Shown here piece by piece: positions 2,170 to 46,600 of a stretch of 64,000 nucleotides of DNA; positions within the stretch are counted from its first letter, which is position 1; each line of letters starts with the position of its first letter. Below the pieces are notes generated by a model, which saw nothing but the letters and a program-made list of their open reading frames with translations, was not told the origin of the DNA and searched no databases. The stretch is from Psammoneis japonica (Eukaryota). The stretch covers positions 248,001 through 312,000 of the forward strand of contig QPGO01000060.1 in NCBI GenBank assembly GCA_008632985.1. Direction: 5' to 3'. The position numbers and the translations under genes were made by a program.

Positions 2170-2226
2170 ACGACGGCTATACGGTTTCATACCGGTAATC
2201 TCTCTACCATAGCTAGAGGGAGAACA

Positions 2227-10270: not shown

Positions 10271-10369
10271 CAGTCCAAACATGTCATCTGTGTGGATGGC
10301 CACTGGCAGCAGCAGAGGAGCCATTGCAGTGGCGGAGCGGCGTGGCCACCGCACCACACCAGTGACAAG

Positions 10370-21733: not shown

Positions 21734-24700
21734 CTAGGCTATGCTTTCGAGTTTGATCTTTATGGATGAATTCACCTTCAATTTGAATGCACCGATTTCG
21801 CCAGCATGAAAGGTGCTTGCAATCATGGTGTACGTGCCTTCAGGAATTCTCTTTGTCTCTGTAGCCACAAAGCCATGTCGGTAATTTCCAGTGTCAACAA
21901 TCGGCTCGCCTGTCACCCATTTCACTCTTGTTTGGTACTTCTCCACTTCAACAACCATAATGTTAATCGCAAATGATTTCATTGCCGAGAACCGAATTTG
22001 CATGTGACACCCTTCCGCCGGGATCTTGAATGCCCACATGGGGTTAAGCGCAAATTTTTCTTTTCCTACCGGGCCTCCAGCAGTTTGCTCTGTCCATGAT
22101 GAGGTGAGCTCCGCGGTGTACGGTAAATCTTTAAGAGGACGGGTGAGTGCAAACTCTTGCGTGCAAAAGCAAGAAATGGTGTAACCGAGATCGTGTGACT
22201 TTTTGTATTGCGACAAGACCAATCCCAAGAATTTGTCCTCTGGTCCAGCAACCTCGTACCTTGCCAGCACGTGAGCATTGTTGGTATAGGCACCTACAAG
22301 AACGGAACTCTTTCCACCCGGGTAGAATATTCTTTCCTTGCTTCCCTTGCTGCGGTGAATATGAATTGTCAGGTAGTCGGTTGCCTTTGCAATAAGAAGA
22401 ATCGATAATGCATATATCTAGTTAAACACAACAACAACATCCCATCAGATATGTCATTGTGCGCAAACGTACCTCACATCCTTCCTGCTCTTGTCTGGCA
22501 ACATGTCTTGACAACAAAATCCAGATTGTCGCTTTCTTCTTCACCGCGTCCTCAGAGAGAGTCAACACATACTGAGGATTCTCCGAAACGTTAAACGTGT
22601 CATCGCGGGGTCCTTGTGAACTCGGCCAGAACCCATGCGTCGTTATTCGGTATGCAAATAATGAAGGATTCCAAGACAGGTGGAGGTTTCGAAAGTACAC
22701 CAAAATGTCGGCCCACGATATCCAGAAGACTCCATCATCCTCTTGAGACGCTAGTTTCGCATTGTACCCAACCTCTGCACAAAACGCAGGATCATTCCAG
22801 CTCTGGCGATCACGTGATGAATATTTCCCTTTCCACGACTTTATGAAACACGCCAGAGAAACGTGAATTAAGGCTCGACTGAAGAGAGATGTCGCAATAA
22901 GGCTCTAGATCGTCCGTACCTGATGTGCCCATGGGTTCTTCAGCTGCAAAAGCCGCGTCCCGTTCCTTGTCTGTACGACACTGAGAACAGCGTACGCTTG
23001 GAATTGGTGGCAATAGAGAAACCGGTGAGCAGCTGAAAACGCAACATTGATCAATGCACAAAGCAGTAACATACCATGACCGGTAACCAACCCAATTTCC
23101 TTCGCCTGTTGTTCTCCAATGTTAGTTGTTGTCGACACCGTAATTAAACAGTCACCGAATGAATTGGCACTTAGCAGTCTATCCCAAGCGCGTTCTACCG
23201 GCGTTTCAAAATCGCGGACATTCTGAGGGTTCTCCGGGAAAAAGAGGCGCTCCGGTATCCAACCTGTCAACGAGAAGAGATCAACACCGCTATTCGAACC
23301 TGGAAAGTCGTATCCACCACCTGTAATTACTCAAATATATATAACATGAGCTTCAGGCTTCAGGTGAAACCAAAATGAACATAAAACAGTCCCAAACACG
23401 CCACTTACATAGCTTCATGTACGCTTTCTCAATTATGGGCACCCTAGAGAGGAAATCGATATTGAATGTACAAGCACTCTATTGAACAACCAGAGACCCA
23501 CTCTAGGATTCAACTTACCACAGTTCCAAACCTTTCGTTGATGTGTGCGAGCATAGAAGATTACCGTTTTTGTCAACTGGAAGGTAATCATCCACAACAA
23601 CTTGTCTTGCCACACCATTCAACCACAACTTCACCATGTACTTGCCAAAGGGATTGTATATTGGTCGCCCCGCGCCGTCCTGAGGGTAAATGATGCTAGT
23701 CACGAGTGTCTTTTGGAATCGTCGTTCAAAGGCGGCAGTGATACATAAACTAGCTATAAAGGAGCAATCAGTCACGTAGCGTTGCCGAATCGTATATGGC
23801 GTGATGGCTTGGACCATAACGGGCCGTTGTGACCTTCTGCCACGCATGGTCATAATCTCGATCGGTCGGGCCCACTTGTAGATTCTCGCCTTTTGCTTCG
23901 GAGCCAGCTTCAGAAAGCCGTCGGGACTCGTAAAGGTTTCTCCAGACATTTTAATAACTTCAGTCGCAAGTTTGGTAGCATCGTCGTCAGACCACGGCAG
24001 AAACAAACCCGATGCAATCAACGAAGAACGCTTCAGAACTGAAATTTCTTCTTGGGTCAAACGAGAGCCCTGCGTTTGTTTCGTCTCCCTCACCCTTTCC
24101 TGATCAATTCGGGTTTTATTGCTCCCTGGATTTTTCAACACTTCCACTCGGTCAAGAGCTCCTTCTAATCTTCGAGTCAGCATGGACACGACGGATTCGT
24201 CGACATTATTGTTTGCTGCCGAAGCGAGGCGAACTGCTTCGAGATACAGTTCTGATGCCTCCATGTATTTTTTGATTGCCTGCTGGAGTTGACCACTCTC
24301 ATCCAAATCCAATGCATGAGCTAATCGTGCATTTGCTTCTCCCGCTTTTCCGGTAATTGTTGTAGTAGCGGAGGATTCCATATCGGCGAATCGTGGTGAC
24401 GCGAGAGGGATAGCTGGAACCGCAACAACACTGACAGTCTGCTCGTCATCAAGCCATTCCTGACCTCGGGGAGACACAGCTGTAGCAACAGGAAGATGAG
24501 AGCTACCGGCATTTTTTAGTAAGTCAGAGGCAATCTTTTGGTAATGGGATATCTTTTCCTGAATTAGGTTTCGCGTCTGAATATTTTCTGAAGTCATTGG
24601 CATGCGCTGAAGCGCTCGCTTCATGAGGTAGCAGGCCTCATAAAACTTCGTCGCCGCTTCAACATGGTCTTGCTCATTTTTCTCCAGATCAGTTGCAACA

Positions 24701-24738
24701 CTTAAGAGCTCAAATGCATCATCTAGAGCTGTCGACAT
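21734..24738 (-). CDS. CAPN7: Calpain-7/PalB-like cysteine protease (two MIT domains, CysPc, calpain domain III); multi-exon
   Basis: Two MIT-like helical repeats; catalytic motifs VTDCSFIASL, LVTGH/AYAV (across an intron) and LKNPW; NGVARQVVVDDYLP; NPQY; several GT-AG introns. Confidence 0.9.
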
Positions 24739-25065
24739 GATGTCGATGCATAATCGCTAATCGCTGTGCCGCAAACAACAACAACAACAGCAAGATTGAC
24801 ATCGGCTTATCGATTGATTCGTGCTTCTGTGTTTTGGAGTTTTGGGTTCGCGCATGCGCGATGCGCAAAATCACGAGCTATTGAAAAAAAAACCTCTTCT
24901 CGTATGCGCGCAAATCGAATCAGCATGACGTCACATCTACGTCATCACATTTTCAAAAACAATCAAGCACGCTGCTGGCATGGCAGGTCTATTAGCTCTA
25001 GAGAGAGGCCCTCTGCTGCTAGCTAGAGCCATTGGTGCCGGTGTATGATGCTCTAGACATGCCCA

Positions 25066-25940
25066 TGCCACTTTTGCAGTCATCAATTTAGCACAACACT
25101 TTTGTCATCAATGCAACATCATCCACTTTGCAACCTTCGGTGCTGCCCTCGCTCCTCTGGGCCTGTGCCTTGAGTGAGTCGAGTCACGAGCGATTTCAGA
25201 TTCCAGCCATTGCAAGGGAAAATTGACATTTTTCCATTGACCAGACAATTGCTGACAACCCCACAAAGGCTGGCAGCTGTCCTTCACACTGAGGTCCAAC
25301 GAACCCAACATGGGCAGGCACTCACATCCGTTTCGGGGCTCTTCGAGGTGTTGCGAAATGATGCAGGCAATGTGCGGAAAAGCAAAATGGCAGAGTGCAA
25401 TCCATTGAAAATTTGACCTCTGTGTGTTGACCCATCCTTGAGGCAGGGGATTGCTGCCAACACTGCAAAACCAAGGTGCGCGACTTTCTCTGACCTCTGC
25501 AGAAGCAGCTCGAGTTTCGGAAGACGCATCATGGCTGAACAAAAAACAGCAAGCGGTGCACAATTTTTGGCAAAGGAAAAGCTGGGGCAGGCAAAACAAG
25601 AGTTGATGAAGCAAAAATCTGCTCACCGCCCGCCTCTGCATGGAAACCGTGCTCCCTGTTGTGGACGCTGGCGAGGCGGCGATTGTGTGGAAAAGAGAAA
25701 AGGAGAAGCGGCAAGAAAATTTCAGGAAACAAACTTGACATTGCGGTGCAAATCTCAAACATGAAGCATGGGTGATGACTCATGCCAGTTCATGGGCCAT
25801 CACAACAAACCAGCAGCTGCAGCATTCAGCAGAATCTTGCTTCTTCAGACTGCAGTGCAACGCGCAGAAAAATCGCACATTAAAGTGAAGAGAGACCGAT
25901 TTGAATTGAACGCTGAACGCAATGGTGCCCCCAACAGGAC
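25066..25940 (-). pseudogene. Mutated duplicate of the 3' end and downstream region of the 43666-49377 gene
   Basis: Collinear with ~43262-44120; HFNVRFFCALHCSLKK...CCSCWFVVMAHELA versus intact HFNVRFFYALHYSLKK...CYSYWFTVMAHELA. Confidence 0.9.
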
Positions 25941-26380
25941 GTCGCCATTTTTGCAGAGATCGATCCAAGGAATGTATGTTCTGGCAGAACACTTCGCTCT
26001 CTAGCTAGAGAGATGCGGCGGCGTGCACTGTAGATAAAGAGAGCCAAACCGGTGCTGTAGAGACGCGTACGCGTGGCAACAATATCTCCGTCCGTCCGCA
26101 TCCGTTGATTTCGCGGGGTTCCTCACAATTCCTCGGACTGGAGTGCTGCCGTCATCTAGCTAGCTAAACAAAGACCTCTCGAGCTGTCTTTCTCTCGCAG
26201 ATCGAGCATTCACAACGAGAGACCACGCGAACCTTATCGGCTCTCAATTTGTTTGTTGTAGTCGTACATAAAGATTATTCTTTGTTGGATCTTTATTCTC
26301 TATTTATTACTTCTATGCATTATATCTATCAAATCTGAAAAGTATTCCGAGTCTGGAGCACTGCACCCTGATTTCCTTTG

Positions 26381-26963
26381 TTATTGGTACGCATCACTGT
26401 ATTCGTGTCGCTCCTCCCAGCAATGGTCGATGCTATTGAAATCGTCAAATCGGTTGACCAACTCGTCCACTTCCCCACTTGAATGATCCCTCAGGTGGAA
26501 GACGAGGAGGGTCCGATTCTGCTTTAGACCGTTTGCAATTGCCATTGCGCTTTGCCACGAAAGAGCGCACCTGGTTTCCACGGAGACTTTTTGCAAACCC
26601 TTGTTTTGGGATAGCAATCGTCCGAGGCATTTCATGACGCGGTCCGTCTCTTGCATGCCGGCGTAGGTAAGGGAGAGGGCACAATTCTTGAACTACCAAG
26701 TCGTCGCGGAGACCATTCAGAATTGCCATGACGCTTTCGCAAGAATGGCTGCTGTCGAGATGGATTCTTGCTCTATTTCCCTGAACATTTCTTACTGTGC
26801 ATCGTTGCGGATGAGCAGTGATGCTTGTTCTGGCACTTCCTACCTCGTTCATGTCGAATCGTTGGCTGGAAGGAAAGCTGTGTAAAGCTTCAGTTTTCGA
26901 TAAGCCCATGATTTTGCGTGAGTCTGTAGTGGGAGAGATAGGATCGGTTGTTGGTGGAATCAT
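26381..26963 (-). pseudogene. Small RNI-like leucine-rich-repeat gene with an apparent +1 frameshift near 26678
   Basis: Two overlapping ORFs with AILNGLRDDLVVQEL and AIANGLKQNRTLLVFHL; removing one C from gaattgtgccctctccctt joins them. Confidence 0.5.
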
Positions 26964-27200
26964 TGTTGGTTACGAAACAAAGACGTGTGAGAGCAATGGA
27001 GTGAGATGTCACTCAGTGTTTGATTTCTGAGTGTGATGTTCAGCTGCTCTCACCTGTCACCAAAAATTTCGAACGCGTCAGGTGCGCTGGTATTGAATTG
27101 TGTACAATCCTACGTTGAATCATGATTACGTCGTACACCCAAAAAATTTCGAAATCTTTCTTCGACTTCAAAGCTGCTTTGTTCTTCGTGTGGGGTGGCG

Positions 27201-27283
27201 GAGGTGCATAAATCGTCTGTTGTCGTTCGCACGCGCGCATTCGCACACTCAGCGCGGACGACAACAGACGATTTATGCACCTC
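27201..27283. mobile_element. 83-bp miniature inverted-repeat element
   Basis: 26-bp perfect inverted arms gaggtgcataaatcgtctgttgtcgt (27201-27226, 27258-27283) flanked by the direct repeat tggcg (27196-27200, 27284-27288). Confidence 0.75.
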
Positions 27284-27830
27284 TGGCGTGCGCGTGCGTG
27301 GCTGGGTGGCGGATGGTTGATGAAGCTTGAACGGAACAGTCTTCCGTGCTGTCAGACTGAATGTGCCTCCTGCCTCTGACACACAAACATCAACTAACGC
27401 ATTAGACCTTAGGAAAACGTTGGAGAAGGGTTGTCGCTGAGACTCCCCTGCTCTCCTCGGCTCTCTGACACAATTGATGAAATTGACAAAGACAACAAGC
27501 CAGACCTTGCACTGTGGTCACAGTCGTTGCAACAGCTTGCCCTTTGATTGCAACGAGGCCACTCTGACACCCTCTGGAAACAGATTGACAAAAAGACAGA
27601 AATGTTTGACATTCAAGCTCGTGTGGAAAATTGGGCTCAACCAAGAGAAAAAGGAAAATCGTGCGCACAATCACATTCACAGCATTGGCGATGCTGAGGA
27701 TCGTTTGTTTGACCTCGAGTCTTGACTCACTGCACTTGAGTTCATGCTTGTTTGGGCTTTGATTGTTGCTGCTGTGTGTCTCAAGTGGAGCTGACGGGCT
27801 CCAATCATCCCAGGTGGGACTTTTTGTGAC

Positions 27831-30800
27831 TGACAGGATTTGAACAGGATTTGGGTGTGCGCGAAATGTCGCGCGCTGTTTAGTTTGCCGTGCACAGTTT
27901 TGTGTGCTTTAGTTCCGCGCGTTTGCGCATGATGCAGTTTGCTTTCGAGCCACAAGGCTCACAAGAACAACAACAGTGGCCCGATTGTGCCGACTTGCAC
28001 GTCTTTCGGCTCCTGCAACGGTCTCTGAGCGGAGACTCATCTGCCATTCAGACAGCAGTGAGGAGTTGTTGTTTGAATTCTTGCCATTTGCCTTCAATTT
28101 CTGTCGGATTAACAGTCTTGCTCATTGTCAACCCATTGAGCAACCGCCATCATCGTTGTTGATTTGCCGACGATGCCGTTTCAATTCTGCGTGGACCTCC
28201 GCATGTGTTCCACATGCATCGGCAAGTCTGCACGCGTTCAACACCAGGCATCGGCAGGAATTTAACGTCACCGTCAAGTCTCCTTACCGCTGGACATCTG
28301 GATTGATCACACTGCCTTTGATCGCTGAAGACATGCATCAACGGTCATGTCCAAGTCTGTCCTTGATCCTCATCCCTTGATGTGCCCATTCAACGGTCAA
28401 CGGTCAAGAACCCCACACATTCAAGGATCTCCATCGCTGAAGACATGTGCACACACACATCTTCACGGCCAAGGACTTGAACCCACTCTTTGGACTGCGG
28501 CTTTGCTGCCACTCTACAAGCACGCCGAGTCTGTTGCACCTGATCTACCCCGGACTGCTGGTGCTCTGCAGTTCTGCCAGGTCCACGAGGACGACTGTGA
28601 GAGCAAGCAGCCATGATTGCAGCCTGCGTTGGGGCGAGGGTGTTTTCCCGCGTTTGTTCGTTCGTCCACAGCGCCTGACGCCTGCGTCAACTGGCCAGCC
28701 TGATCGGGAAATCCAACTGACACAAAACAAGAACGGTTCGGGGGTCTTGTCCACCTCCAGTCAGCTCACCTGCAGGGGTTTGCAACCCGCTGCTCCGCTC
28801 GCAAGCAACCCAAAGCGCCACCAGCTGCGGGTTCGGACGTGCCGGCACAACTCCACGGACCGGATGGGAAGTTTAGCACTTGACAACGAACGGGATGGCA
28901 CAGCCCGGCGACTTCTGATTTCAAGATGGTCCAAGATTTCAAGTCAAGTCTTTTTCAAGCCAAGTTCCAAGTCAAAACTCCGAGTCAAGATCACGCTCTA
29001 GATTGGTTCCTGTCTTTTGTTTCTACTGCACCGTCCTCCGTCATGGTTCTCACGCGACAGCAACAAACCGAAAGCTTCAAATGCATTCTAGGCACTGTGC
29101 TCAATCAAGACGATGACAGCCCTCTTTGTTCTGCCCTGTCCATCAACGGGATTGAATCGTGCGAGGAATTGTTCACGTTCTTGCCCACCCAAATTGATGC
29201 CCTCACTTACAGAGACGGCGCCAATGTAGTGCCTTTGCCACGGACCCACAGAAACCTCCTAGCAGCTTTGATCAGCTTCTACTTTGTCAAAGTTTGCAAC
29301 AGTGATGATGTGACCAATGAACCCCAGTTGCTCACACCCGAGGAATTTCGCAACTACCGCCTTGGTCCAGACTGCTTGACCTCTCTAGCCACTGGCGCAG
29401 CACCCTCCGCACCTGTGCCGAGTCCCTTGCCATCCAAACCAGATGAACCCAGTGCCATTTTGACACCAGCCTTGCACTGTGCCGCCACTCAGGTGTCCCC
29501 CAGAAGTGGTGTCAGTCGTGCCCCGCATGTCTTGACCAACCCGCCTGCAAGCAACCTCAGCCCAGTGCAGGATTGCAGCCCTTGCACAGGCCCGCACTTC
29601 AAGACCAGTTGGGACACTCCACCCATGGCTTCCAAAGCTGCAGTCTTTGCACCCCGCAAACCACGTGCTGCCAACCTCCACGTGTCGACTTCTGTCACTG
29701 TCACCCTTCACAGTCTTCGTTTGGGAAGTGATGGAGGTGACAACTTGCTTCTCGTGTCTCCTGATGGGGAGCCTCCTTTTCCCGTCATTGAATCTGTTCA
29801 CAACAGTTCAACCGGTTCATCAGATGGGGAGTTCAGGACATCCAAGCAGCTTCATTGTCTTCAGATCCTCCAAGCATCGCACAATGAGACCAGGCCTCCT
29901 GATTGGATGCCCCAAGTCTCGTACCTCGAGACTGGGCCTCCTGATTGGATGCCTCAAGTCTCGCACCTCGAGACCAGGCCTCCTGATTGGATGCCTCAAG
30001 TCTCGTACCTCGAGACTGGGCCTCCTGATTGGATGCCCCAAGTCTCGTACCTCGAGACCAGGCCTCCTGATTGGATGCCTCAAGTCTCGTACCTCGAGAC
30101 TGGGCCTCCTGATTGGATGTCCCAAGTCTCGCACCTCGAGACTGGGCCTCCTGATTGGATGCCCCAAGTGTCGTACATCGAGACTGGGCCCCCTGATCGG
30201 ATGCCCCAAGTCTCGTGCCTTGAGACCAGGCCTCCCAACTGGATGCTCCACATCTCATGCCTCAAGACTCGGCCTCCGGATTGGATCCCTCAAGTCTTGC
30301 GCCACGAGACTCGGCCTCCTGATTGGATCCCCCAAGTCTCGCACCTCAAGACTTGGCCTCCTGATTGGATCCCCGAAGACTTGTGTCACAACACTGGCAA
30401 GTCCTTTTGGATCCCAGAAGTCTTGCAGCACGGGACTGGTTGCCCCAATCAGACATCTGCAGCCTTGCACCACAAGATGTCTTGCTCCAATCCGATCCCC
30501 GAAGGCTTGCACCTTGAGACTCGTTTCTCCAATTGGATCAGTCTCTCAGGAGATGCAGTCGGATTGGTGGAACACAAGACCACCGCTTGTGCCTTTGAAC
30601 TGATGCTTGCTCTGTTCCCCGAGTCGTGCAAACGCCATGCCGCCTGCAATGTTGCCCCACCGTTCAACATTGTCAACAAGACCAAGCTTTGCTCCTTCCA
30701 TTGCAAGCGCGGATGTGGAATCCCACAAGATCCCAAGTGTGCCTTGAGCTTTGAAAAGCACAACGGCATCTGCAACTGGGGAGACGCAGCTCATCTCAAG

Positions 30801-31217
30801 ATGACCCACTTGGAGAATGCAACGTTGCTCTTGGATCTTGATCCTTTCTCGTCTCCTCATGTTTTGGTGCTTTGACTCCAAAGTTCTTTAGTCAATCCGA
30901 AGTCGAATCTGTTTCTGTGGCTCCTCAAGCAAACTGGGGAGTGACAGGATTTGAACAGGATTTAGGTGCGCGCGAAATGTCGCGCGCTGTTTAGTTCACC
31001 GTGCACAGTTTTGTGTGCTTTAGTTCCACGCGTTCGCGCACGATGTAGTTTGCTTTCGAGCCACAAGGCTCACAAGAACAACAACAGCAGCCCGATTGTA
31101 CCGACTTGCACGTCTTTCGGCTCCTGTGATGGTCTCTGAGCGGAGACTCATCTGCTGTTTAGACAGCAACAAGGAGTTGTTGTTTGAATTCTTGCCATTT
31201 GCCTTCAATTTCTGTCA
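27831..31217 (+). mobile_element. Non-autonomous (internally deleted) LTR retrotransposon, probably diatom Copia (CoDi-like); 276-bp LTRs, 5-bp TSD
   Basis: LTRs 27831-28106 and 30942-31217 (TGACAG...CTGTCA); TSD gtgac at 27826-27830 and 31218-31222; purine run ggggag before the 3' LTR; gag-like ORF 28926-30875; no RT, RNase H or integrase core. Confidence 0.9.
29886..30545 (+). repeat. 42-bp in-frame tandem array, ~16 units (ETRPPDWMPQVSYL), decaying toward the 3' end
   Basis: Unit gagaccaggcctcctgattggatgccccaagtctcgtacctc, seen directly. Confidence 0.95.
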
Positions 31218-33799
31218 GTGACATTGGGCGCGCAGAATTCTACTTGCGAGCTCCGCAGCAAAATTACAAAGCAATGAAAACATGAATGATCGCTGACAGA
31301 AATAGAGGCAATTTTACGAACGTATCTCCTCCTCCAAATTTGAAGCACGTCATTTGTGGTTTGCCCGGGTGTGTTCTTTAGACACCAAAGAACACACCCA
31401 GCGCATTTTCATTGTCACAAATGTGGAAAACAGAAAGCCTTTGGCTTCGCAAAAGAGGCAGTGTGGAACAATTTTTTACAATGGAACACGCAGAAATGTG
31501 CGTGCAAAACTTGCGACGGATGACAAAAAATGATTGTGTCACAGTCCAGCAGTGCGAGGTCCCACCCAGAGCTGGAGCGCGTCAGCTGCATTGTTTGTGT
31601 GCTCAAATTTGTGGTCAACTGGCTGATCTCCAAATGCCTCTAGAATCATGTGCAAAGCTGCAATGGAGACCGCTTGCATTGAGTGCAAGACCAAACTCAA
31701 ACACTCTGAGCTCTCGACAAGAGGTGAAGCTCACACAGGAGTTTGAAGGTGGTTCAAAGCTCTTGCGCATGTGTCCTGTTTTCACTGGTGAGTTCGGAAT
31801 TGAACCCTTGTTGCATGTGGAGGATCAGTTTTGCAAGTGTGCACACGTCAATTGCAGCACACTGATGAATCAGATTTGTTTGGCTGTTTCTTTGAAGATT
31901 GTTTGCATGGCAATGCCAAAGCAAAGTGGTTGAACATCACCTCTGCTGTTCCTCAGGCACAGTGCACTTTTGCACACTCCAATCAAACCAGGAGTTTGCA
32001 TCATTTGTGATGTGTGACAAGCCTTTCTGGGGGGCACTGACCACGGCAAGACTGCACAAGGTCATCAGCATGCACGCATGCATGTGTGCTTGTGGCTCAG
32101 AGCAGGCCTGTGCAGGTTTTCCACTGGGATTGACACCATGCATGCATGACAAAACAACATGTGAAACTTTTGCCATCACTCATTTGTGAGCCACAAAGAA
32201 TTGCCAAGCCAATGAGACATGTGTGATCCGCAAGCATCTCATTGACACAGCTGTGCCCAAATGGCTTGGCAACTGTTCCAGGTGGGCCCAAACTTGTTCA
32301 ACAGAACGTGTCATCATGGTTGTGTTGCAAGCAAAAAATTGGTGGTTGTCAATTTGCAATGACGTGTGGAACACAAAGCAAAATTAAAGGAGGTCTTTGA
32401 GGCAACCTTCCCACAGCCAGAGTGCAGAGTTTTGCTTGACTGGCTGAGCCATTGCAGTTGCTTGGATGCACATTTGTGCCAAAAGAAACTTGGTCTGAAC
32501 TGCCAATGTCAGATCCAGAAGCACCTGACTGGTGTCTTGCCTCAAGAGATGAGGGAGTCCTGTCCACAACGTTTGTGTGTTCGTGCCAAGAAAGTGTGGT
32601 CCAGATTGAGGAATGAGTCGCAGCAGGCAGAAGTTTGTTGATTGACATTTTTTAGAAAGAGGCAAGACTTTTGTCAATCAAACATTGTGCATTTGCCATC
32701 TGGCTAAAATCCAAAGGTGAGCCATCCAACTGTCGGGCTCACGTCTCATCCATTCCTGGGCACAACAGGAACAGAAATGAGTCATGACGTCTTGGCGGAG
32801 GGTTGTTTGAATTGGCCAAGCAATCAAGAAAACAGTGGTCCACGTGTGTCACTGGTTTTCTGTTGTTCATTTTCCCAATTTTGTTCTCAGCCACAGTGCA
32901 TGATCACCATGTCGGACGGTGTTGTTTTTCCACTGCAGTTTCCCAATCCTGCTGAGGATTGCACACTTGCACAGCTGACGGAGGTGAGGCAAGTGCTGCA
33001 GAATGACAAGTGGCACATCCGTCTCATGCAGAAGAATGCAATTTGCCATTTGAGCAACTTTGGAACAACACAAGATAAAATTGACTCTCTTTTGCCAACC
33101 AAGGGGAACTGCATCAATTGCCATCATGTTGGTCCAAACCAACAAATGTGCCGACACTGCATCGGCCTGGCCAATCGGCTGGAGCAACACATTTGGGGAG
33201 ACATTCCCAACACACAAGCTGTGATGACTTGCTGCTGCTGCTTCATCAATGCCCACCCATTCGAGAAAGCAGAAGGCTGGCACACTGAGCTGGACATCAA
33301 AGACTTGTCTTTTTCTGCACCATCAAAGCTGTGGGCCGTTCAACATCATTGATGTAAAAAAGGCTGACAGGAAGCTGCAGCAGTGTTTCAAATTGAAGCA
33401 CCAGAGAAGCAATGTGTGCCCAACTTGCAAACACACCCACTTCATCATGTGCCAGTTGATGTGTGGGAACTTTAAAATGGTGTGGCAGCATCTTGAGAAT
33501 CTCAACCAGCTGGATGTTCTTGAAAACTTGCCACCGATCATTCCCAAGGAATCCACAATTTCATTGCCAAGAGGGGTGGTGGCGGGCATTCCGATGTCAA
33601 TTCACACTGATTGGACAAAACATTGGCACACTGGTTTTGTCATTCCATGTGATGAGTTCGACACACGGAAATTTGTTGTGGTTGCATCAAAACTGCACAG
33701 CTCCATGTCCAACCAACAGCTCTTTAAATGTTGCTTGGGAACTGCCACCCATTGCACCTAAAACACACACCTGTCTGCTGCGTTTGTCTTGGTGGCCTC

Positions 33800-36899: not shown

Positions 36900-38541
36900 T
36901 CATGGGACATTGCATTGATTTTGAAACTTCCGTGAGCAAATCGCATGATTGAACATTGTGCAACACATGAAATGGCGCCAATCTAATTTTTGGAGCATGA
37001 GATTCACAAATGCAGGGAAGTCCAGTTTGCAACAACAAACCACCTTGCGGGGGAATGCACACATGACCAACCAGTGCCACACTCAGGGACGAGCAACAAC
37101 ACACACAACATCTGGAGACATCATTTCAACCATGGTGCAGAGGCAGATCAATCCAGCCAAATGGATGGACGACAAGGAGAAGGTGGCCAAAGACACAGTC
37201 AAGGTGAGAGAACACATCAAAGAAAAGGTGTTTCTCAGTGTCACACTTGTGTTTAATGTGGAACAGTTGGAGGAAACTGGAATGCTTTGCAGAGACTGCA
37301 CACAGAATTGCGGACTGACGCCAATGGATGGAATGCTTTTGGAGCTGCTGGAGGCAAACCAGAAGACACACCTGCATTTCCTGTGGATGAAAATGAAAGA
37401 AAAAAGAGTGCACCAGGATTGGCTGATGACAAAGTGGTCAAATGCATGTCAAGCACAGCAAGACAAGTTTCACAATGAGTGTTGTCATGGAGGATTGTCA
37501 CATTGTCATGGATGAGGGAACAGAATGCCAACACCGGCATGTTGTTGTTGCTCATGATGCAGCCCTTTGTGCATGCTGCAACAAGCACAGTTGCATCTTG
37601 CCATTGCCAGAATGACTCCAGGAGCAATTGTTGAATCCCACATTGCAAACAGTGTTCTGCAACCACTTGTTGAAACCCATCATGGAAGAATTTTGTTGGA
37701 AGAAGAGCCTGTCTGAAAACAAAAGGTTGGGCACGTTGTGTGCCAAGGCATTCACCCACATGCTCCTCAAGAACAATTGTGTGGCGTGGATCACAGAGCA
37801 CAAGAGCAACAATGAGGAGAACCGATTTATGATGGACTGCAATGTGGATGTCAACAACCAAGGAAACCCAACCAGAAGGGGAGACTTGTGTGAAACCATG
37901 ATGCCAGACATCGCCATTGCTGAGCAGAAAGATGCAAAGGAGATGGATCAAGCACATTCGCCATTTTGAAGAAAGACCCTGAAGAAGCCACAGAGCAAGG
38001 AATGGTCAACAAGTTGGTGAACAAGTTCAAGGAGGTGCGGGAGAAGTCCATCAATGGCCAGAATGAATGCATCAAGAAGGTGAGAGCAGAGAAAACAACA
38101 CAGGATCAGTTGTCCATTTTGACAGAGGTTGCAACAGAGCTGGAGGGCCACAAGAACCCACCAGACAGGGAATTTGGCGCCAAAAAGAGAAAATGCCTGA
38201 GATGCTTGAAGCACTTCATGGTGGGAGAGACCAAGAGAGGAGAGGAAGAAGGCACTTTGAGGAGACAACGCAAGATGCCCAGGAAGAGCAAAGGATGGTT
38301 GCCAAGGGCAAACAAGTTCTTTGCAAGAATGGTGAGGGAAATCAAGCAAGACATCCAGGACAAACAACTGGGCAAGTGGGAAGAGATGCACAGGATGATT
38401 GTGGCTGAGCACAACAGGAAAGGGGGGCAGGAGAATGATGAGTCGGAAGACGAAGACGACTGCATGGTGGACTGCATGGAGACACACAAACTGGAATTGA
38501 CACCTGTTGATCAGATGCAACATTCGCGCACTTTCAAATGA
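36900..38541 (+). pseudogene. Degenerate accessory ORF of the same DNA transposon, divergent from the transposase
   Basis: FCNHLLKPIM...KAFTHMLLKNNCVAW and KSKGWLPRANKFFARMVREIKQD motifs; acidic tail; short repeats (cattgggttgca) at ~38720-38780 near the probable element end. Confidence 0.45.
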
Positions 38542-40991
38542 CATTGTGGAGTGGGGGTGTAAATTGACAAAGTGAATTTTAGCATTCTGACCAGGAAGTA
38601 GATTGAATGACATTCTTGCAAAATGGTCATTTGGGAAACAAATCAATGTGTCCATTGTCAGTCAGTTGTCAATTGTCGTGAAATGGAATTTTTGTTTGCA
38701 TCAAATTGTTGGATGGCAGCAAACCAATTGGGTGGCACAATCAACTCATTGGGTTGCACAACAAACTCATTGGGTTGCATGTCACTGACTTGATCCACCA
38801 GACATTTGTTGAAGGTGCAGGACATTTGTTTGTTTTCAATGATCAAGTCATGAACAAATTGACGTGCTTTCTCTCACACATGCGGGGACAGAATGAGGTT
38901 GGGTTGGCTGTGGATGCAAGGATTCATTAATTTGGGCCCCTCATGTTGGTGCAGCAACTTGTTGTTGCAACATGTGGCTTTGCAGGTTGCATTTGCTTGC
39001 CCCGCTGATGGAACTCACAGACAAAGGCCACTTCAAGTGATCCAGTGCTTGTGACAAGGCCTTCAAGGAGATGAAAGCTGTTGTTGCAAGCAAAGTGCTC
39101 CTCCAATGCCCAAACCACAATCTTCCATTCCATGTTCACACTGATGCTTCAGACTGCCAAATGGGTGCTGCCACAATTCAAAATGGCGGGAAGCCAGTTG
39201 CTTGCTGGTCCTCCAAGCTCTCAGTGGCGCAGCACAACTGCACCACAATGGAGAAGGAACTCCTCACTGTCATCATGTGCTTTGAGGAGTTTTGGACCAT
39301 GTTGCTTGGCATGGAATTAGTTGTTCATGCTGATCATAAAAATCTCACATTTTGCACCTTGCATTCTCAACGCGCACTCAGGTGGCACCTCTTTCTTGAA
39401 GACTTTGCCCCACGCTTTGTCTGCATCAAGGGCAAGGACAACATCCCAGTGGATTTTTTTTTGTGTCTTCCTTGCATGGATCCATCATCTGAGGGGAAGA
39501 GTCAATGACTGAGCAGCAAGCACAAAGGAGCCATCATTGACACTAAAAAGTTGGGTGCCTCTGAGGACATGACTCAAGATGAGCTTGCAGAGGATTTGGG
39601 TGCTTGTTGTTTCAAGCACTGTTGTGCTCCCATTGAACCTGAATCTAACACATTCTTGTCCCTTCTTGATGAACCAGAGCTTTTCAAATGCTTTTTGAAT
39701 TGTCCAAGCTTGGATGAGATGCCAAGTCCTGTGGAGACAGTGCAGTTACAGTGGTTCCAGTTTCAGGACATGGAGTTGAGCCAGCAACAGCAACGGAACC
39801 CTGGCAACTTTGTCATGAAGATTGTGAACAATCGTCCCCTGATCTGTCATTGTGCACAGCCTGATGATCCTTCTGCAGCACAAAAGATTTGCACTTCAAC
39901 CAAATTGCTGCCTGATGTTCACTTGTGTGTTGGTGCCATTGCGTGTTGTGACACTGTGGCACTGTGCATCTGTGTGAAAGCATCCGGACTCACTTGCATC
40001 ATCCAGCATTGCATTGTTCATGCAATGCTTTTGCAATGTGTGATTTTTGTCAGCATTTTAAACAACTTGGACTGGGCCATGGTGAATTGCCAGAAAGAGA
40101 AGCACCAGTGGCTCCATGGACTGAAGTTGCTGTTGAATTGATTGGACCTTGGAAAGCGCCAATTGATGATCTTGAAATTGAACTCCAAGCACTCATGTGC
40201 ACTGGTGCTGTCACCAGACCAACTGAACTTGTGCACATTGATGACAAAGCTTCTGAACCTGTGACTGACAAATTCTGCAGCACTTGGTTGTCTCATCACC
40301 CCAGGCTGAATTGCTGCATCCATGACAATGGCGGCGAGTGTTCATCGGCTGGGAATTTCAAATGTCATTGAACCAAGCGGGCATCGTGGATGCACCAACT
40401 GTGTCGCGCAATCCTGCAGTGAGCACAATGCAAACAAATGCATCAAATGGTGGCTGACCTTCTGTGCACTGTGCTTGTTGCCAACCCTCCTCAAAATGTT
40501 GTGCAGGTGACTCAGATCATGGATGATGCCTTGGCTGCTGCCTCGAATGCCCTTTGTTGCTCCTTCTCAATGTCAATGAGAATTTTGCCAGGAGTGCCAG
40601 TGTTTCAACATGACATGATTTTAGACCTTCCAATTTTGGCCAATCTTGCTGCAATTCAAGCCAACCATCAAGTTCTGATCAACAAGAATCTTTGAACACA
40701 GAGTGCCAAGCGACGATCCTGCGACTGTCAAGTTGGGCAAGATGCGTTGGTCAAGTCGGTCAACCCTGTCAAGTTGGATGCTTGGCCATTGGACCTTTTT
40801 GGATTGTGCAAGTCCACACCAACAGGACTGTTTCAACAATGCAGGCACCACATGCAGCGCATCGGGGGTGAGTGGTTTTCTTTCCCCACGTCGGGTTTCC
40901 CTCAGTCTCTGCTGGAGTTTGAGCTTGAGTTTGGATTTTGAATTGTTTCCATGGTGCACAGGACTTTGCACCCTGGAGAGGGAGAGTGAAC

Positions 40992-41360
40992 TTTCCTGAA
41001 TTGGGTTTGCATCTGAACATTTTCTGAAGTCATTGACACGCACTGAAGCACTCACGTCATGAGGATGAGGTGGCAGGTCTTCTCACAAAACTTCGTCACT
41101 GCTTCAACATGGTTTTGCTCATTTCTTTCCAGATCAGTTGCAACACTTGAGAGCTCAAAGGCATCATCTAGAGCTGTTGACATGATGTCGATGCATGGTC
41201 TCTGTGCCGCAACCACAACAACGACAACAGCAAGGTTGATTCGTGCTTTTTGGATTTTGTGTCTGTCGCGGGGCGTGCGCGCATGCACCAATGACATGAC
41301 GTCACGTCTGCGTCATCAAATTAAAATCAAGCAAGTTTTCGAAAAGCAAAACGTCATGGC
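40992..41360 (-). pseudogene. Mutated duplicate of the calpain-7 5' end and promoter
   Basis: MSTALDDAFELSSVATDLERNEQNHVEAVTKFCE versus intact MSTALDDAFELLSVATDLEKNEQDHVEAATKFYE; collinear with ~24555-24980. Confidence 0.92.
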
Positions 41361-41631
41361 TGGAATTGTCCTGAGGCTGTGTGGTGTGGGAATCTACGCA
41401 ACGTGGCAAAAAATGCAATCAGCTCTGAATTCTTTGCAGCAAGTGTGATTGGCCGTCACGTCTTTGTCCCCGCACATTTTCTACAGCGGCTGCACGATTT
41501 CGAAAATTCATGCCGCAACGCTCGAAGCATCGCCTTCAGTGACGCTCTTGACGAACCTGAAAGCAAAATCAAGAGCGCAACGGTGTGCCTTGAACATTTT
41601 GACAACCTTGTCGAGTGCAACGGGTCCAAAT

Positions 41632-43254
41632 TCATGGACCCCTCAGTGTCTTCAATGCATCCACAATCAACAGCATGGTGAGCCTGAATGTGCTGTCGTG
41701 CTCTCTTTGCAAACTTGCGCATGCGCTCCGTTGAGACACCTCATCCGACAAGCAATGCCCAGCCGATTTCTTGAAATTTTCTTTTCCTCTTTTCTGTGAC
41801 AGGAAGAGGTTTCGACACTTGCCTTTTGAACAAGCCCACAGATGCTCTGTGCCTTCCCCTGCCAATTCAGCATGACATTTTGGAGTCAAGATCACGCGGA
41901 CTCCCATGCGGTGCACATGATGCTGAAGCAGTGTAGTTTCCTTGGAGAAATCTTCACAAGAGGCAAGCATTTCTGCTGGCTCTGTGTTTTCCAAGCAATT
42001 CCCATGCTGATCTTCAATCCCTCCTTTTCCATGCTTCAGGTTAGCATCAATCAACCCCCTTTCTGTCAACACTTGAAGCAACCCTTTCGGCTTGCCGCGC
42101 CAACCCGGGAGAATTTTCCGCACTGTCTTTTTGATTGGAATGTTTGCTTTCTCGCAGTCATCCTGCAAATCTTTCTTTGTGCTACCCTTTAGCACGGTGT
42201 GGCTTGGATCCTTTGCCCTCAAGTCATTTTCTAGCTCCTCTTTGAGTTTGTCAACGGTCTTAAACTCGTCTGTCGGTGTGTCTTCCTTTCGTCGGAGTCG
42301 CTCTTCCGGATCCATCAGGCAAGGCCCTTCATCCTCGTCTTGGAATATCATTGATTGTGTGTCACCAACTTGCAGCCTTTGTGCATTCTCATACTCTCCT
42401 ACACATTCTTCTGTCAATTTAGTGTCTCTCATCTTGTATTTCCCGCCCCACCCTAGGTTCATCTTGTGGGCCGACAAGCCATCCTCCCGCTGCTTTGAAT
42501 GGCCCGACGAGTGGTCAAAAAAGAAAATATGATCAAATTCAGGACACTTTTCATTAAGTACATCAACAACATCTTCAAGCTGCGTCACCATGTGGTTGTA
42601 CGTCCAGTGTCCCTCACTATTCTGCCCGTACTCAAATTCGCAGACGAATGGCGACGTCTTTATATCTTTTTTGGAATTGGACCCCCGGGCTTCGGTTGCT
42701 GCTGCTTCATCACAGTACACAGTTCCACTCCTTTTGTCATTCACTTTCTTGAGCAAAGCATCATCAAGACTTCGTATCAGGCCAAACTCCCGACATATAA
42801 AAAGAGAGAGCATTATTCCAAGGCCCTCATCTTTCGGAACCAGCGCTGTCTCACCATGTGGCCCAACCCAAGCCTTGTTATTCAATAGAAACTGTTTAAA
42901 AATAGCCTCATCTTGCCACGACAACATAGCCGGCTTTGCATTGGCAGGAAACCGGTAGCTTAGATATCCACCATATTCTCGCACTTTCGGATCGGCGGAT
43001 TGAGCAACCATGTCACGAAAGCCGCTATAGTCGTCCACATGGAACTCGACATATACGTTACCATCTCGAGTAAAGTGGGAGTCTGGACCACGATTCGGAA
43101 CCAAGCCTGTATTCATGAGCTCCGTTGCTTCTTCCAGTGGAATTTGTATCCACCTGTAGCACCTCGTCTCCAACTCAAGGTATTCTTTGGTGAATTGTTT
43201 TCGATATGCCTTCGTGGCAGGCTTCTCGTGACCGTCGACATAAAAGCTTTTCAC
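41632..43254 (-). mobile_element. 5'-truncated DDE transposase, IS630/Tc1-mariner-related (YVDGHE type)
   Basis: Motifs FYVDGHE, WQDEAIF, PKDEGLGIMLS, FDHSSGH, MNLGWGGK, PKGLLQVLTERG, TPKCHAELAGEG.E..W; the ORF start abuts host intergenic sequence. Confidence 0.75.
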
Positions 43255-43665
43255 ACTCCTCTGCCACTTTTGTAGTCATAAAATACTGTATTAGCACAAC
43301 TGCTTTTGTTATCAGCACAACATCTACTTTACAACCTTTTGCTACCCTCGAGGCCTGTGCCTTGCGTGAGTCGTGCGAGCGATTCTAGCCGTTGTAGGGA
43401 ACATTGACATTTTTTCCATTGACCAGACTACCGCTGACAATCCCGCATTTGGCGTTAGAAGGTTGGCAGCTGTCCTTAACACAGAGATCTAATGGCCCCG
43501 ACATGGGCTGGGCTCTCACATCCGTTTCGGGGTGCTACGAGGTGTTGCGAGAAACGACGCGGGCAATGTGCGGAAAATTAAAACGGCAGAAGTGCGAGCC
43601 ATTGAAAATTTGACCTCTATGTCGAGTCATCCTTAAAGCAGGGGATTACTGCTATAACTATAAAA

Positions 43666-46600
43666 CTAAGGTGCACAACTTTCTAACCTCTGTAAAAGCA
43701 GCGCGAGTTTCGGAAGATACATCGTGACTGAACAAAAAGAAAGTAAGCGGTGCGCGATTTGGTGAGGGAAAAATTGCGACAGGCAAAACAAGAGTTGATG
43801 AAGCGAAAATCAACTCACCGTACGACTCTGTATAGAAACCGTGCTCCTTGTTGTGGCCACTAGCGAGGTGGTGACTGTGGAAAAGAGAAAAGGAGAAACA
43901 GTAAGAAAATTTCAGGAAATGAATTTGACATTGTTATGCACGTCCCAAACACGAAGCGCGGGCGACGACTCACGCTAGTTCATGGGCCATCACAGTAAAC
44001 CAGTAACTGTAGCATTCAGCAGAACCATGCTTCTTCAGACTGTAGTGCAATGCGTAGAAAAATCGTACGTTAAAATGAAGAGACCGATTTGAATTGAAAG
44101 CAATGGTACCCCCAACAGGCTCGTGATAAATTGCAACAGTGCCAAGATCCAATGAATAAATGCTGCAAAGTTGCTTTATCACATCGGCGAAGCTATCAAC
44201 AGCATGAAAATTCTCGCCAAGAAAGTGGTCGGAGTTCGTATGTTTCCGGGACGCGAATACTCGGATGCCATTGTGAGCCTTTCCTGTCCGATAAGGTCCT
44301 GTGAACGGCTTTAGGTCTTGACTTGGAATAACTTCGCAGCCATTTGGGTTGCGGTTAAGATTCTCCGGTATGGGCATGTTGACGGCTGCGGGGGAGTGCA
44401 CACCTCTCGCATTCACCTTCGAAGATTCGGAGACAGTTCTACGCAGCATTTCTTCCATACCTCGTTGGTTCGCCTCATCAGCTGCCGGAGTAACAACATT
44501 TTCATGATCGTTGTTGGGCACAAACGAAGGCTTATTATCTTCTGTGTATTTCGCTTTTGGCGCTTCATTCTCTGATTTGCTAGGCGCTCGTTTCCCACCG
44601 AACGCACGAGAAAGACGTTTGCCGAATTTGCGCTTGTGCTCGTTCAGCGCTCCCGGATGTCCGTCTCTTGTCTGACCACCGCTTTTCTTGGCTTTGTTCG
44701 GCGGCTGTTTTTCTGGGTGCGCATTTTGAGCGGCAGCCTTGCAATTCTTCGGATAGTCACCAGACGACATTTCTTCGGCGAGAGTCCTTACATCTTCTAA
44801 AGTCGGTTTGTCGCCCAAGCGCGATCGAATAAACTGTTCAGATGCGTCTGGATACATTTGTGATAGAATGTCAACAAACCCGTCCTTGCTGATCACATCC
44901 GAGCCATCTCCGTTGGCAGTGTTCGACGTCTTTGCGGGTGGCGTCCCCGCTGGAGGCATTGCCGCTACTGTTGGCTCTGGTTCCTTCACAGGCTCAGCAA
45001 CCGGCTCAGTAGGTCGCAAAATGCGATCAACAGGAAATCCACGAGCTCGAAGCTGATCGAGAGGCGCCTCCAGGATCGATCCAATGAAGAAAGCATCTTC
45101 CAGCTGGCAGCGCTGAAGAATAAGCCCGCCAATGGCATAGCCAACATCGAACCAGTCGAATTCTTCGGTAATGTAAAGTCCGTTCTTTCTCCCACCAGAT
45201 GATTTGGCACAACAAGTGATTCTCTGGTTACGAACCGATTTGCCTAGGGAATATACCGCTTTCAGACTGTCTGCTTCAACGATTTGCAGCTTCTTGTCCT
45301 CTAGTATGGAACTGGCGGCTGGAACAAGAGGCCTTGATGTAACACTAGGGGATACCAAGAGCGGGCGCCTTTCCGAAATTCGCTCAGCAAGTTGACGAGT
45401 AAGCTCCGTGTTCTCACGCTGCATTCCAAGCACCTCGAAGTTCTTTGATACACCTTTGGAAATGTATTTCGATCCCAACTTGACGTAAAAGTCCTCAAGA
45501 TCTGATTCATGTGGAGCTCTCAAAACAGGGAACATTCGTCCAAAGAATGAATTGTCAATGATGAATACATCTTCTGCCTTTGCCAGCAAATAATTTGCTT
45601 TCTCTTTTGGTTGGTCACCGTCAGAAGACATTTCTTCTTGGACCTTATAAGCCAGCAAAAACGGGGACTGACGAATAGCAGGCGTCACTCTTTGAAAGGG
45701 AGGATTTGCAGCAATTCGTCTCAAAAGAGAACGATACTTTTCTTCGCTCCCGAGAGTCCGTAACACCTCGTCTGGTGAAGCAATGATCAACCGAAAGAGA
45801 TCTAGAGGGCGGGACGACGAGGCACAAACATTAGAGATGAAATATTGCGGGATATAAATGACCGCCGCAATCACAAAGACTTACCTTCGGTGGTTGCTTC
45901 AGACTTAACCCCAGCTGCTGCCAGAAACGGGCTAAATTCAATCACATGAAAGAGAAGTCCCGTCAAGGAATCGTTCTCGCTCTCTGAATTCTTAAAGTAC
46001 ACATCAGAAGGTCTATACCACGAAATGCCGGATTTGCCCACCTTTCTGGGGATAAAGGCTTGCGACTTGAGTTTATTGAGTGAGGATTCACTGAAATCTG
46101 TACTGCGTGTGGAAAGATACTTGAAGATGTCATGGAATGTGGCACACACGTGCGTGCACAACGCCGTGCGATCGTCTCCGTTGGTCTCCTTGATCTTCTT
46201 CTTGGCATCTACTACCAACTGAAGAAGCTGTTTCAAAAGTGAAATCGGCTGTGGTTCATCTGAAATTGCAAATCGAATAGCGTACAAGCCACCGCTTTTC
46301 TTCTCCGCTTCCGGATCTAGAACCGGAAAACCCATTATCAGGCAAGCTGAGCTCGAATAGCATGTGTTTGGCGACTGCAGTTCCTGGATTTCACTCTTTG
46401 GTACAAGAGGGTCTCTCCTGATTGCAGGCAAAAACCAAAGATTTCTCATTTGTTTTGCCGTTGATTTCGGGTTGAATCTGGACGGATCACAGTCATTCGC
46501 ATACGCTCCATTGGGTTCAAGGTGTTTACAAATGTAGTCGAGACACCGAAGACGCAATTCCTTGTCCTTGACGTCGTAAGCCACATACATGAGCAAATCG

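Follow-up and report, generated by a model that had tools for sequence, protein, structure and literature searches.

Near-erasure of TA dinucleotides from orphaned host-gene copies and transposon relics on a contig of the diatom Psammoneis japonica

The DNA considered here is a 64,000-nucleotide stretch of the diatom Psammoneis japonica (contig QPGO01000060.1), referred to below as the window, and all coordinates are window positions. A host segment of ~1.4 kb occurs twice in it. The segment comprises the 5′ end of a calpain gene, a spacer and the 3′ end of a gene for a DUF3684/sacsin-like protein, and its two copies, designated A and B, each hold one live gene end and one dead fragment. The dead fragments, together with long stretches of transposon DNA nearby, have lost nearly all of their TA dinucleotides, while the live gene ends have kept theirs. 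The parts of the duplication and its two host genes are as follows.

22461–24738, minus strand: intact, TA-normal calpain-7/PalB-like gene with MIT, Peptidase_C2 and Calpain_III domains (Pfam); ATG at 24738
24555–24799, minus strand: copy A block 1, the live calpain 5′ end and parent of the fragment at 40992–41239; 8 TA
24800–25089: presumed calpain promoter and 5′ flank, TA-normal, spared though within the duplicated segment; 12 TA
25066–25978, minus strand: copy A block 2, a dead copy of the last ~56 codons of the DUF3684 gene plus ~700 bases downstream; 2 TA against 44 in the parent
40992–41239, minus strand: copy B block 1, the dead calpain 5′ end, with an R>stop change and indels; 1 TA
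41240–41933: TA-poor stretch running on from the dead calpain fragment; 4 TA in 694 bases, CG still near normal
43262–44163, minus strand: copy B block 2, the live DUF3684 3′ end plus ~700 non-coding bases, TA-normal, parent of the dead fragment; 44 TA
43970–49377, minus strand: intact DUF3684/sacsin-like gene of about 1800 amino acids (Pfam and tblastn); first Met at 49377, stop at 43970

Self-BLAST of the window resolves the duplication into two blocks. Block 1 pairs A 24555–24799 with B 40992–41239 (82.8% identity over 256 columns), and block 2 pairs A 25066–25938 with B 43262–44119 (78.6% over 898 columns). A small matching patch lies between them (24924–24967 and 41295–41335), and sensitive local alignment extends the right end of block 2 weakly to ~25978/44163. 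The copies are collinear, with order, orientation and the promoter patch conserved, although copy B contains an extra ~1.9–2.0 kb between its blocks (41340–43262). The copies are separated by 15,053 bases, and parent and mutated counterparts lie 16–18 kb apart on one molecule. An initial annotation of this DNA had proposed a ~1.4-kb segment present twice, with one intact gene and one dead fragment facing the intervening island in each copy. The alignments bear out the first point; Pfam and tblastn matches, together with the stop (CGA>TGA) and indels of the dead calpain fragment in copy B, bear out the second. The six pairs of intact and dead strings listed there are all seen in the copy alignment. 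The gene that it called an ATPase is the DUF3684/sacsin-like gene. Homologues of both genes align along their full length in tblastn searches (residues 2–650 in the case of the calpain-7-like gene). The closest relatives of both proteins, at 55–60% identity, come from metagenomes and assemblies, and those that bear names belong to diatoms (Cylindrotheca, Bacillariaceae, Cyclotella, Attheya and Conticribra).

The differences between live and dead copies are strongly directional. With the gene-side copy taken as the parent over both blocks, transitions account for 127 of 166 mismatches, the remaining 39 being transversions in about 1070 aligned bases. Among 48 aligned parental TA, 37 have become CA (23) or TG (14) in the dead copy, three are kept and eight are otherwise changed. 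The reverse change, in which a dead-copy TA faces a parental CA or TG, occurs in no case (binomial p = 1.5e-11). Changes of A to G are concentrated after T (41/94), as opposed to after A (14/181), C (14/153) or G (8/122); a tabulation by context of this kind had been suggested as a check in the initial annotation, and its outcome, at 37:0 for TA, agrees with what was claimed there. Outside TA, a mild excess of A>G remains (36/456, compared with 14/366 for G>A outside CpG; p = 0.018). A second change, which the initial annotation did not mention, affects the same dead copies: 28 of 54 aligned parental CG read CA or TG, with 10 changes in reverse (p = 0.005). Cytosine is replaced by T at 30/107 sites before G, and at only 2–6% of sites in other contexts, from 3/158 (CpA) to 6/126. 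A control duplicate in TA-normal genic DNA (55989–56695 and 58598–59303, 707 bases) exhibits no asymmetry, with ratios of 4:5 for TA and 8:8 for CG, no CA-versus-TG pairs, and transitions at 89 of 179 mismatches.

The direction of change is set by protein outgroups. In the N-terminus of the dead calpain copy, the changes include TTA>TCA (L>S), TAT>TGT (Y>C), TAC>CAC (Y>H) and CTA>CCA (L>P), and in its MIT helix CpG-type changes give R>stop, R>C, two A>V and one T>M. At the changed sites, the intact calpain agrees with nearly all aligned sequences among 30 diatom homologues. Similarly, the C-terminus of the dead DUF3684 copy carries four TAC>TGC changes (Y>C) plus the synonymous GTA>GTG and CTA>CTG. 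Across the highly conserved C-terminal pattern '...RFFYALHY...CYSYWFT.MAHELA', the live copy agrees with 26 homologues, and the Tyr>Cys sites include the Tyr of 'LHY' and of 'CYSYW', which are conserved in most of the 26. Where the dead copies have changed, the homologues thus keep Tyr or Leu, which makes TA the ancestral state and TA>CA/TG the direction. The outgroup test that the initial annotation called for, run here at the protein level, thus upholds its direction and contradicts an ancestral CA/TG. Its premise, that the functional copy stands for the ancestor, holds at coding sites, where homologues support it, but does not suffice by itself for block 2, which is mostly non-coding in the intact copy. 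In that non-coding part, the direction rests on composition and one allelic variant, at position 25383, where the parent copy and the other allele or contig read TA and the window reads CA.

Loss of TA extends well beyond the dead fragments. Four nearly TA-free tracts, their limits drawn from the TA map itself and their edges resolved to tens of bases, occupy 31,034 of the 64,000 bases: 7547–19058, 25090–25974, 27411–41933 and 49622–53735. The second of these falls within copy A block 2, where the single remaining TA of the tract is at 25881. In the tracts, rho(TA) is 0.02–0.15 and rho(CA/TG) is 1.45–1.83, compared with roughly 0.4–0.7 and about 1.1–1.2, respectively, in genic DNA; G+C is about 0.48 in both. 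Gaps of at least 200 bases between successive TAs all lie inside the four tracts, except for one of 254 bases (60142–60396). In that gap, the CG and CA/TG counts look ordinary, and it may be due to chance. With TAA and TAG stops and Tyr codons erased, the tracts are filled on both strands with long, overlapping open reading frames (ORFs), and 46 of the 52 ORFs of at least 140 amino acids that overlap TA-depleted regions contain no Tyr. The main features of the tracts, and the TA-normal piece that separates two of them, are the following.

7547–19058: TA-free domain with a Gypsy reverse transcriptase/RNase H relic; rho(TA) 0.045, rho(CG) 0.25
13219–14276, plus strand: Gypsy reverse transcriptase/RNase H relic in the domain 7547–19058; 13590–14276 used for the RNase H comparison
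25975–27410: TA-normal single-copy piece between the dead DUF3684 fragment and the TA-free island; not identified by Pfam or the Atlas
27831–31217, plus strand: long terminal repeat (LTR) retroelement of a high-copy family; LTRs at 27831–28106 and 30942–31217, target-site duplication GTGAC
31218–40991: TA-free transposon-relic DNA; rho(TA) 0.04, rho(CG) 0.25
39041–39505, plus strand: Ty3/Gypsy RNase H relic in the TA-free relic DNA 31218–40991
49622–53735: TA-free domain starting 245 bases upstream of the DUF3684 first Met; rho(TA) 0.06, rho(CG) 0.10

TA loss and CpG loss differ in tempo. In the dead fragment, the LTR element and the stretch 40991–41933, TA is near zero while rho(CG) is still 0.64–0.82; in the old tracts, rho(CG) has fallen to 0.10–0.25. 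Loss per site in the dead copies amounts to 2.8 for TA and 1.0 for CG. TA loss therefore precedes and outpaces CpG loss. A 5′-flank bias of the CpG loss in the tracts, such as the TCG context of the amphioxus deaminase BjADAT2, was sought and none was found, as expected for ordinary methyl-CpG decay.

The LTR retroelement indicates when the changes arose. Its LTRs are 276 bases long and begin with TG, the 3′ LTR ends with CA, and the element is bordered by a perfect 5-base target-site duplication (GTGAC at 27826–27830 and 31218–31222). It carries a 663-amino acid ORF with no recognisable pol domains and a 42-base tandem array of at least 13 copies (29786–30541). The family is very abundant, with a summed word depth of about 1e5 versus about 57 for unique DNA in a sequencing run designated X1. 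The two LTRs have diverged at 21 sites. Transitions make up 20 of these, and the class of changes between TA/CG and CA/TG takes in all except about two. Fourteen dinucleotide sites differ by the process, and at five of these one LTR has CA and the other TG (5 of 6 double differences). The window has CA at position 28049, where TA accounts for 236712 of the 237619 depth units of the repeat family. Because LTRs are identical at integration, yet this pair has diverged by the process, mutation took place after integration and on DNA. DNA just outside the LTRs (27411–27830) is likewise TA-free. Taken together, the LTR divergence and the mutation of host fragments that were copied as genomic DNA rule out that the changes came mainly from editing of an RNA or cDNA intermediate. 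The initial annotation had made this argument from the host DNA targets, and the LTR pair strengthens it.

The two Gypsy relics tell the same story at the protein level. Six RNase H columns with a conserved Tyr (17–27 Tyr among 26–29 homologues) hold His or Cys in 11 of 12 cells of the two relics, and conserved His and Cys columns are unchanged. Three of the six pair a His in one relic with a Cys in the other, a combination that requires a TAY ancestor. Double differences between the relics are dominated by CA-versus-TG pairs (60 of 215), the next most common class numbering 13. A DNA outgroup was also sought: a metagenome scan with the Gypsy RNase H relic yielded no confirmed relative, and the exact 25-base LTR pattern yielded 0 matches. 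Homologues of the Gypsy relics from other assemblies (P0160, P0161, P0162 and P0166) have many Arg>Cys/His changes at conserved positions and keep most conserved Tyr, a contrast that hints at CpG decay without TpA erasure in some other hosts of this clade. The first TA-free domain also contains diverged repeats of 76–78% identity (10047–10240 and 16644–16837, inverted; 10368–10580 and 15812–16017, direct), which are possibly the ends of elements nested around the Gypsy relic.

It is nearly certain that a TpA-specific process converting A:T to G:C acted in place on the DNA of this locus, host-derived DNA included. The fuller explanation favored here, an in-place DNA mutator that converts TpA to CpA or TpG outside active genes and promoters whatever the origin of the DNA, is held with moderate confidence. 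Under this explanation, the ~1.4-kb host segment would have been duplicated, and transposons would then have piled up between the two copies. The halves attached to live genes would have kept their TA while the orphaned halves lost about 94% of theirs, the mutator treating transposon relics and functionless host-gene copies alike. The cue would be silent chromatin, probably methylated or heterochromatic, in which a deaminase that prefers a 5′ T and a 3′ pyrimidine would turn adenine into hypoxanthine, to be read as G. CpG in the same tracts would decay more slowly to TpG and CpA, for which deamination of methylated cytosine would be the simplest cause.

The sequence context of the changes bears on the chemistry. 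C comes next after the edited adenine in 16 of 37 events, and after the unedited partner adenine in 4 of 36 (p = 0.003). The three TAs that survive in the dead copies all have the YTAR context. In the tracts, YTAR accounts for 71 of 122 surviving TAs, versus 222 of 1205 in normal DNA (odds ratio 6.2, p = 6e-20), and relative TA retention falls from 0.49 at TTAA and 0.37 at CTAA/TTAG to 0.012 at ATAC/GTAT and 0 at ATAT. Survivors being mostly YTAR, the target would be 5′-TAY (or RTA, if thymine is the base attacked). Domain-wide trinucleotide differences per kb are in step with such a target (TAC −10.0, TGC +13.9 and CAC +7.9; TAA −6.4, TGA +6.5 and CAA +11.6), although these figures, like the YTAR contrast, set transposon-derived against genic DNA, whose starting compositions may differ. 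Enzymatic deamination of adenine at 5′-TAY is the chemistry proposed, at a confidence slightly short of even, the alternatives being thymine modification and biased T:G repair. In addition to the matter of starting composition, several points weigh against it. The sequence cannot separate adenine deamination from thymine modification or biased mismatch repair, and the deaminase is hypothetical. CA and TG outcomes on the two strands are intermingled, and a runs test on them (12 runs, P = 0.20) gave no sign of processive single-strand action. The 3′ preference of ADAR is for G, which TAY does not resemble. Nor does it resemble the GAA context reported for amphioxus ADAT2 on DNA in the available part of PMC10354150.

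The first alternative retains the targeting and changes the chemistry. The change would start at thymine, for example through oxidation to 5-hydroxymethyl- or 5-formyluracil, which mispairs with G, or T:G mismatches would be repaired with a bias to C:G in methylated chromatin. In the sequence, an A>G change at TAY and a T>C change at RTA are one and the same, and the co-occurrence of CpG decay suggests a methylation-linked repair environment. An analogue of biased T:G repair is the very-short-patch repair that is thought to deplete CTAG in enterobacteria. However, the earlier and faster loss of TA means that it is not a by-product of a CpG repair load, and a repair bias adapted to deaminated CpG should favor TpG, not TpA, as its site of action. 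This alternative is considered unlikely, although it is the strongest of those raised.

What is targeted can be judged from the duplication itself. All four sub-blocks are equally duplicated and only the orphaned ones are mutated, having lost about 94% of their TA. Copy B block 2 retains 44 TA in 858 bases, about 700 of them non-coding, with no TA lost relative to the dead copy. Duplication is thus not sufficient for mutation. Because the gene-side halves are equally duplicated yet untouched, targeting follows position or silence and not homology; and since selection could not hold every TA of non-coding DNA, the spared parts were not exposed. Upstream of the calpain start codon, a tract edge is 352 bases away; for DUF3684 the distance is 245 bases. 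The likely cue is a position in inactive chromatin, genes and their promoters being exempt, rather than homology or foreign origin. Two points weigh against such a cue. Silent chromatin is deduced from position relative to genes alone. Moreover, the TA-free tract of copy A (25090–25974) ends a few bases from the duplication breakpoint at ~25978 and has TA-normal DNA on both sides, a coincidence that fits pure spreading of a domain only if the piece 25975–27410 arrived later or is protected. That piece may be a later arrival or may itself be active.

This coincidence speaks for a second alternative, in which the mutator would find duplicated sequence by homology, with the logic of repeat-induced point mutation (RIP) but another chemistry. 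The tract 25090–25974 and block 2 (25066 to ~25978) coincide, with an offset of no more than about 25 bases at either end, and most of the other targets are transposons, i.e., repeats. On the other hand, the partner copies are equally repeated and lost 0 TA against 37, including about 700 non-coding bases of copy B block 2; the duplicated calpain flank (24800–25089) was spared; the TA-poor state in copy B reaches 41933, about 700 bases past the homology; and the 707-base genic pair is unaffected. In the preprint on B. natans discussed below, so far as its available text goes, the main target is single-copy. A repeat-induced trigger is accordingly given a little less weight than the change of chemistry.

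A third alternative, A-to-I editing of transposon transcripts at the RNA level by an ADAR-like enzyme, followed by fixation through reverse transcription, is very improbable. It draws on the fact that A>G with a 5′ U/T preference resembles the work of RNA adenosine deaminases, as is also argued in the available text of the B. natans preprint, and that many targets are LTR retroelements. It is opposed by the LTR pair, with 14 dinucleotide sites that differ by the process and opposite outcomes at five, by the mutated host fragments copied as genomic DNA, by the TA-free flank (27411–27830) outside the LTRs, and by mutation of both strands without runs.

Artefact ranks equally low. Modified bases might have been misread (A as G, C as T), or two haplotypes mis-joined, the latter being a possibility that the initial annotation had itself raised. 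K-mer contigs from run X1, at an even depth of about 56–63, reproduce the TA-free sequence and cross the junctions (24683–26552, 38806–41148, 42476–43271 and 43273–44299), although the four runs that contain this DNA come from a single sample and study, are of unrecorded library type and are possibly the assembly's own data, so that the support from X1 is not independent. Misreading would not account for the 39 transversions and many indels between dead copies and parents, and opposite-strand misreading would be expected to give conflicting calls rather than a clean CA or TG. A mis-join is unlikely in view of the 17–21% divergence and reciprocal gene content of the copies, unlike haplotypes, and of contigs at single-copy depth over the junctions. 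Variants between the X1 contig and the window number 9 in 885 bases of dead fragment and at most 2 in 985 bases of flank (p = 0.03), and nearly all are TA/CG to CA/TG or the reverse; this clustering in the dead fragment suggests that the process is recent or ongoing. Contigs from another run, X2, whose library kind is unrecorded, cover TA-normal parts only (24300–24812, 26285–27022, 41919–43205 and 43974–44299). Such coverage would suit a transcriptome in which the mutated DNA is the silent DNA, but missing coverage proves nothing, and these contigs were not used as evidence.

The weakest alternative, a RIP-like CpA>TpA process on the gene-side copies with the dead copies ancestral, trades on the symmetry of pairwise differences without an outgroup and on RIP as the familiar link between CA/TG and TA, but is hardly credible given the Tyr and Leu of homologues at live-copy TA codons, a gene-side TA density equal to that of other genic DNA when the dead copies have almost none, and CA-versus-TG pairs and His or Cys at conserved Tyr that need a TA ancestor.

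The closest known counterpart is found in the chlorarachniophyte Bigelowiella natans (Mettrop et al., bioRxiv 10.64898/2026.01.13.699255; the statements that follow are limited to the available part of its text). In mutation-accumulation lines, 231 of 302 nuclear point mutations fell in two integrated viral regions. Almost all were A>G/T>C, all were on TpA, and they arose at about 6e-7 per site per generation, about 1000-fold above background and in some lines only. An ADAT2-like DNA adenine deaminase was proposed by the authors (bioRxiv 10.64898/2026.01.13.699255). The P. japonica locus shares with the giant-virus and virophage DNA of B. natans the almost exclusive A>G/T>C change at TpA, the sharp delimitation of nuclear regions, TpA depletion with CpA and TpG enrichment, and a raised density of variants. 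The main target in B. natans is single-copy and transcriptionally silent.

The two cases differ in several ways. One host is a rhizarian and the other a diatom, and depletion is mild in B. natans (rho(TpA) 0.45 in the region from a nucleocytoplasmic large DNA virus), in contrast to near-erasure here (0.02–0.15). Rates were measured directly in B. natans and are inferred from sequence here. Targets in B. natans are viral inserts plus some transposon-like coding sequences, while those of P. japonica are transposon relics plus functionless host-gene copies. Foreign origin, which marks the B. natans targets, does not describe those found here, as the calpain and DUF3684 fragments are mutated as fully as the transposons; such host-gene targets widen the definition of a target rather than excluding kinship of the two processes. 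The co-decay of CpG, the 5′-TAY/YTAR rule and the evidence from host duplicates belong to the present locus, the available preprint text never using the words CpG, trinucleotide or diatom. No description of such a process in diatoms was found in the literature, within a coverage that left out most subscription journals.

Comparison with other mutators brings out what is distinctive. A first guess, that the pattern was fungal RIP and the direction given in the initial annotation wrong, was ruled out by the diatom relatives of both genes and by TA being ancestral. RIP is a premeiotic process involving a RID-type DNA methyltransferase; it changes C:G to T:A, chiefly CpA>TpA, mutates both copies and lowers G+C. 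It is known from ascomycete fungi (see, for example, PMC2621366). Likenesses to RIP are the defence-like transition hypermutation of transposons and duplicated DNA, its action in place, and a signature involving TA and CA/TG. In contrast to RIP, TpA is destroyed here instead of made (C>T at CpA being 3/158), G+C is unchanged, only the orphaned halves are mutated, the gene-side halves having lost 0 TA, and a genic duplicate is unaffected. Methyl-CpG decay in silenced transposons is matched by the change of CG to TG or CA in the dead copies (28:10) and by rho(CG) of 0.10–0.25 in the old domains. It accounts, however, for no more than the CG component; the loss of TA proceeds faster, goes further towards completion and has an unrelated chemistry.

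Editing deaminases provide the remaining comparison. APOBEC acts on cDNA and gives C>T, whereas ADAR acts on double-stranded RNA and prefers a U on the 5′ side of the edited A. Deaminases that hypermutate retroelements and viruses in animals are treated in the available part of PMC4866542. Enzymatic editing directed against mobile elements, and the 5′ U preference of ADAR, would be points in common; the substrates differ, being replication intermediates (cDNA, RNA) in animals and integrated chromosomal DNA here. Hyperediting by ADAR would leave both LTRs with shared changes and would exempt DNA that was not retrotransposed, unlike the 21 LTR differences and mutated host fragments of this locus. 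The natural substrate adenine of ADAT2/TadA, a family of tRNA adenosine deaminases, follows U33 of the anticodon loop, which fits a 5′-T requirement. To our knowledge, no link has been made between ADAT2/TadA-family deaminases and chromatin targeting. BjADAT2 deaminates both A and C in DNA, with GAA and TCG as its contexts on Escherichia coli DNA (PMC10354150, from the part available), unlike the TAY seen here.

It is conceivable, though put at somewhat less than an even chance, that a DNA adenine deaminase system directed by chromatin exists in diatoms and, taking B. natans into account, perhaps across much of the SAR supergroup. Such a "reverse RIP" would erase 5′-TAY from any silenced DNA, host pseudogene fragments and transposons alike, independently of homology and faster than methyl-CpG decays. 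A natural A:T>G:C mutator acting at a defined motif and in defined chromatin would, if real, represent a new class of genome defence and a possible source of natural DNA adenine-editing enzymes. The locus adds a comparison with parent copies in cis on host DNA, the insufficiency of duplication, the relative kinetics of TA and CG, and the TAY/YTAR rule. It also serves as a particularly clean test bed, with parent and mutated copies of host DNA 16–18 kb apart on one molecule, and shows that the process has a known direction, requires neither foreignness nor repetition, stops a few hundred bases upstream of live genes and outruns CpG decay. On the practical side, kilobase domains devoid of TA, Tyr codons and TAA/TAG stops generate spurious long ORFs in all frames, mislead gene finders and blur homology searches for transposons. 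Dating of elements from LTR divergence would be badly biased in genomes of this kind.

A few further features of the window deserve mention. Rfam and tRNA scans of the window gave no matches. The extra DNA of copy B holds one feature of note.

41998–43275, minus strand: TA-normal ORF of 426 amino acids, situated between the two blocks of copy B and absent from copy A; no Pfam family

Its look-alikes in the Atlas are unnamed eukaryotic clusters of patchy taxa (sponges, basidiomycetes and rotifers), DDE_3 being only a weak lead, and it may be the gene of a young DNA transposon that has (so far) escaped mutation. A 547-amino acid ORF at 41635–43275 is probably the real ORF, from about 42000, artificially lengthened into TA-free DNA. 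An ORF at 26448–26969 likewise matches no Pfam family, and Atlas matches for both it and the 426-amino acid ORF are unnamed or weak. A search for terminal inverted repeats bordering the additional 1.9 kb of copy B or the piece 25975–27410 gave nothing convincing. The latter piece holds a 30-base, 97% complementary hairpin at 27201–27283. Finally, a gene for the catalytic subunit of DNA polymerase alpha is located at 2152–7024 on the plus strand, its DNA_pol_alpha_N, exonuclease, polymerase and zinc-finger domains being distributed over three ORFs that are presumably split by introns, and the first TA-free domain begins ~520 bases past this gene.

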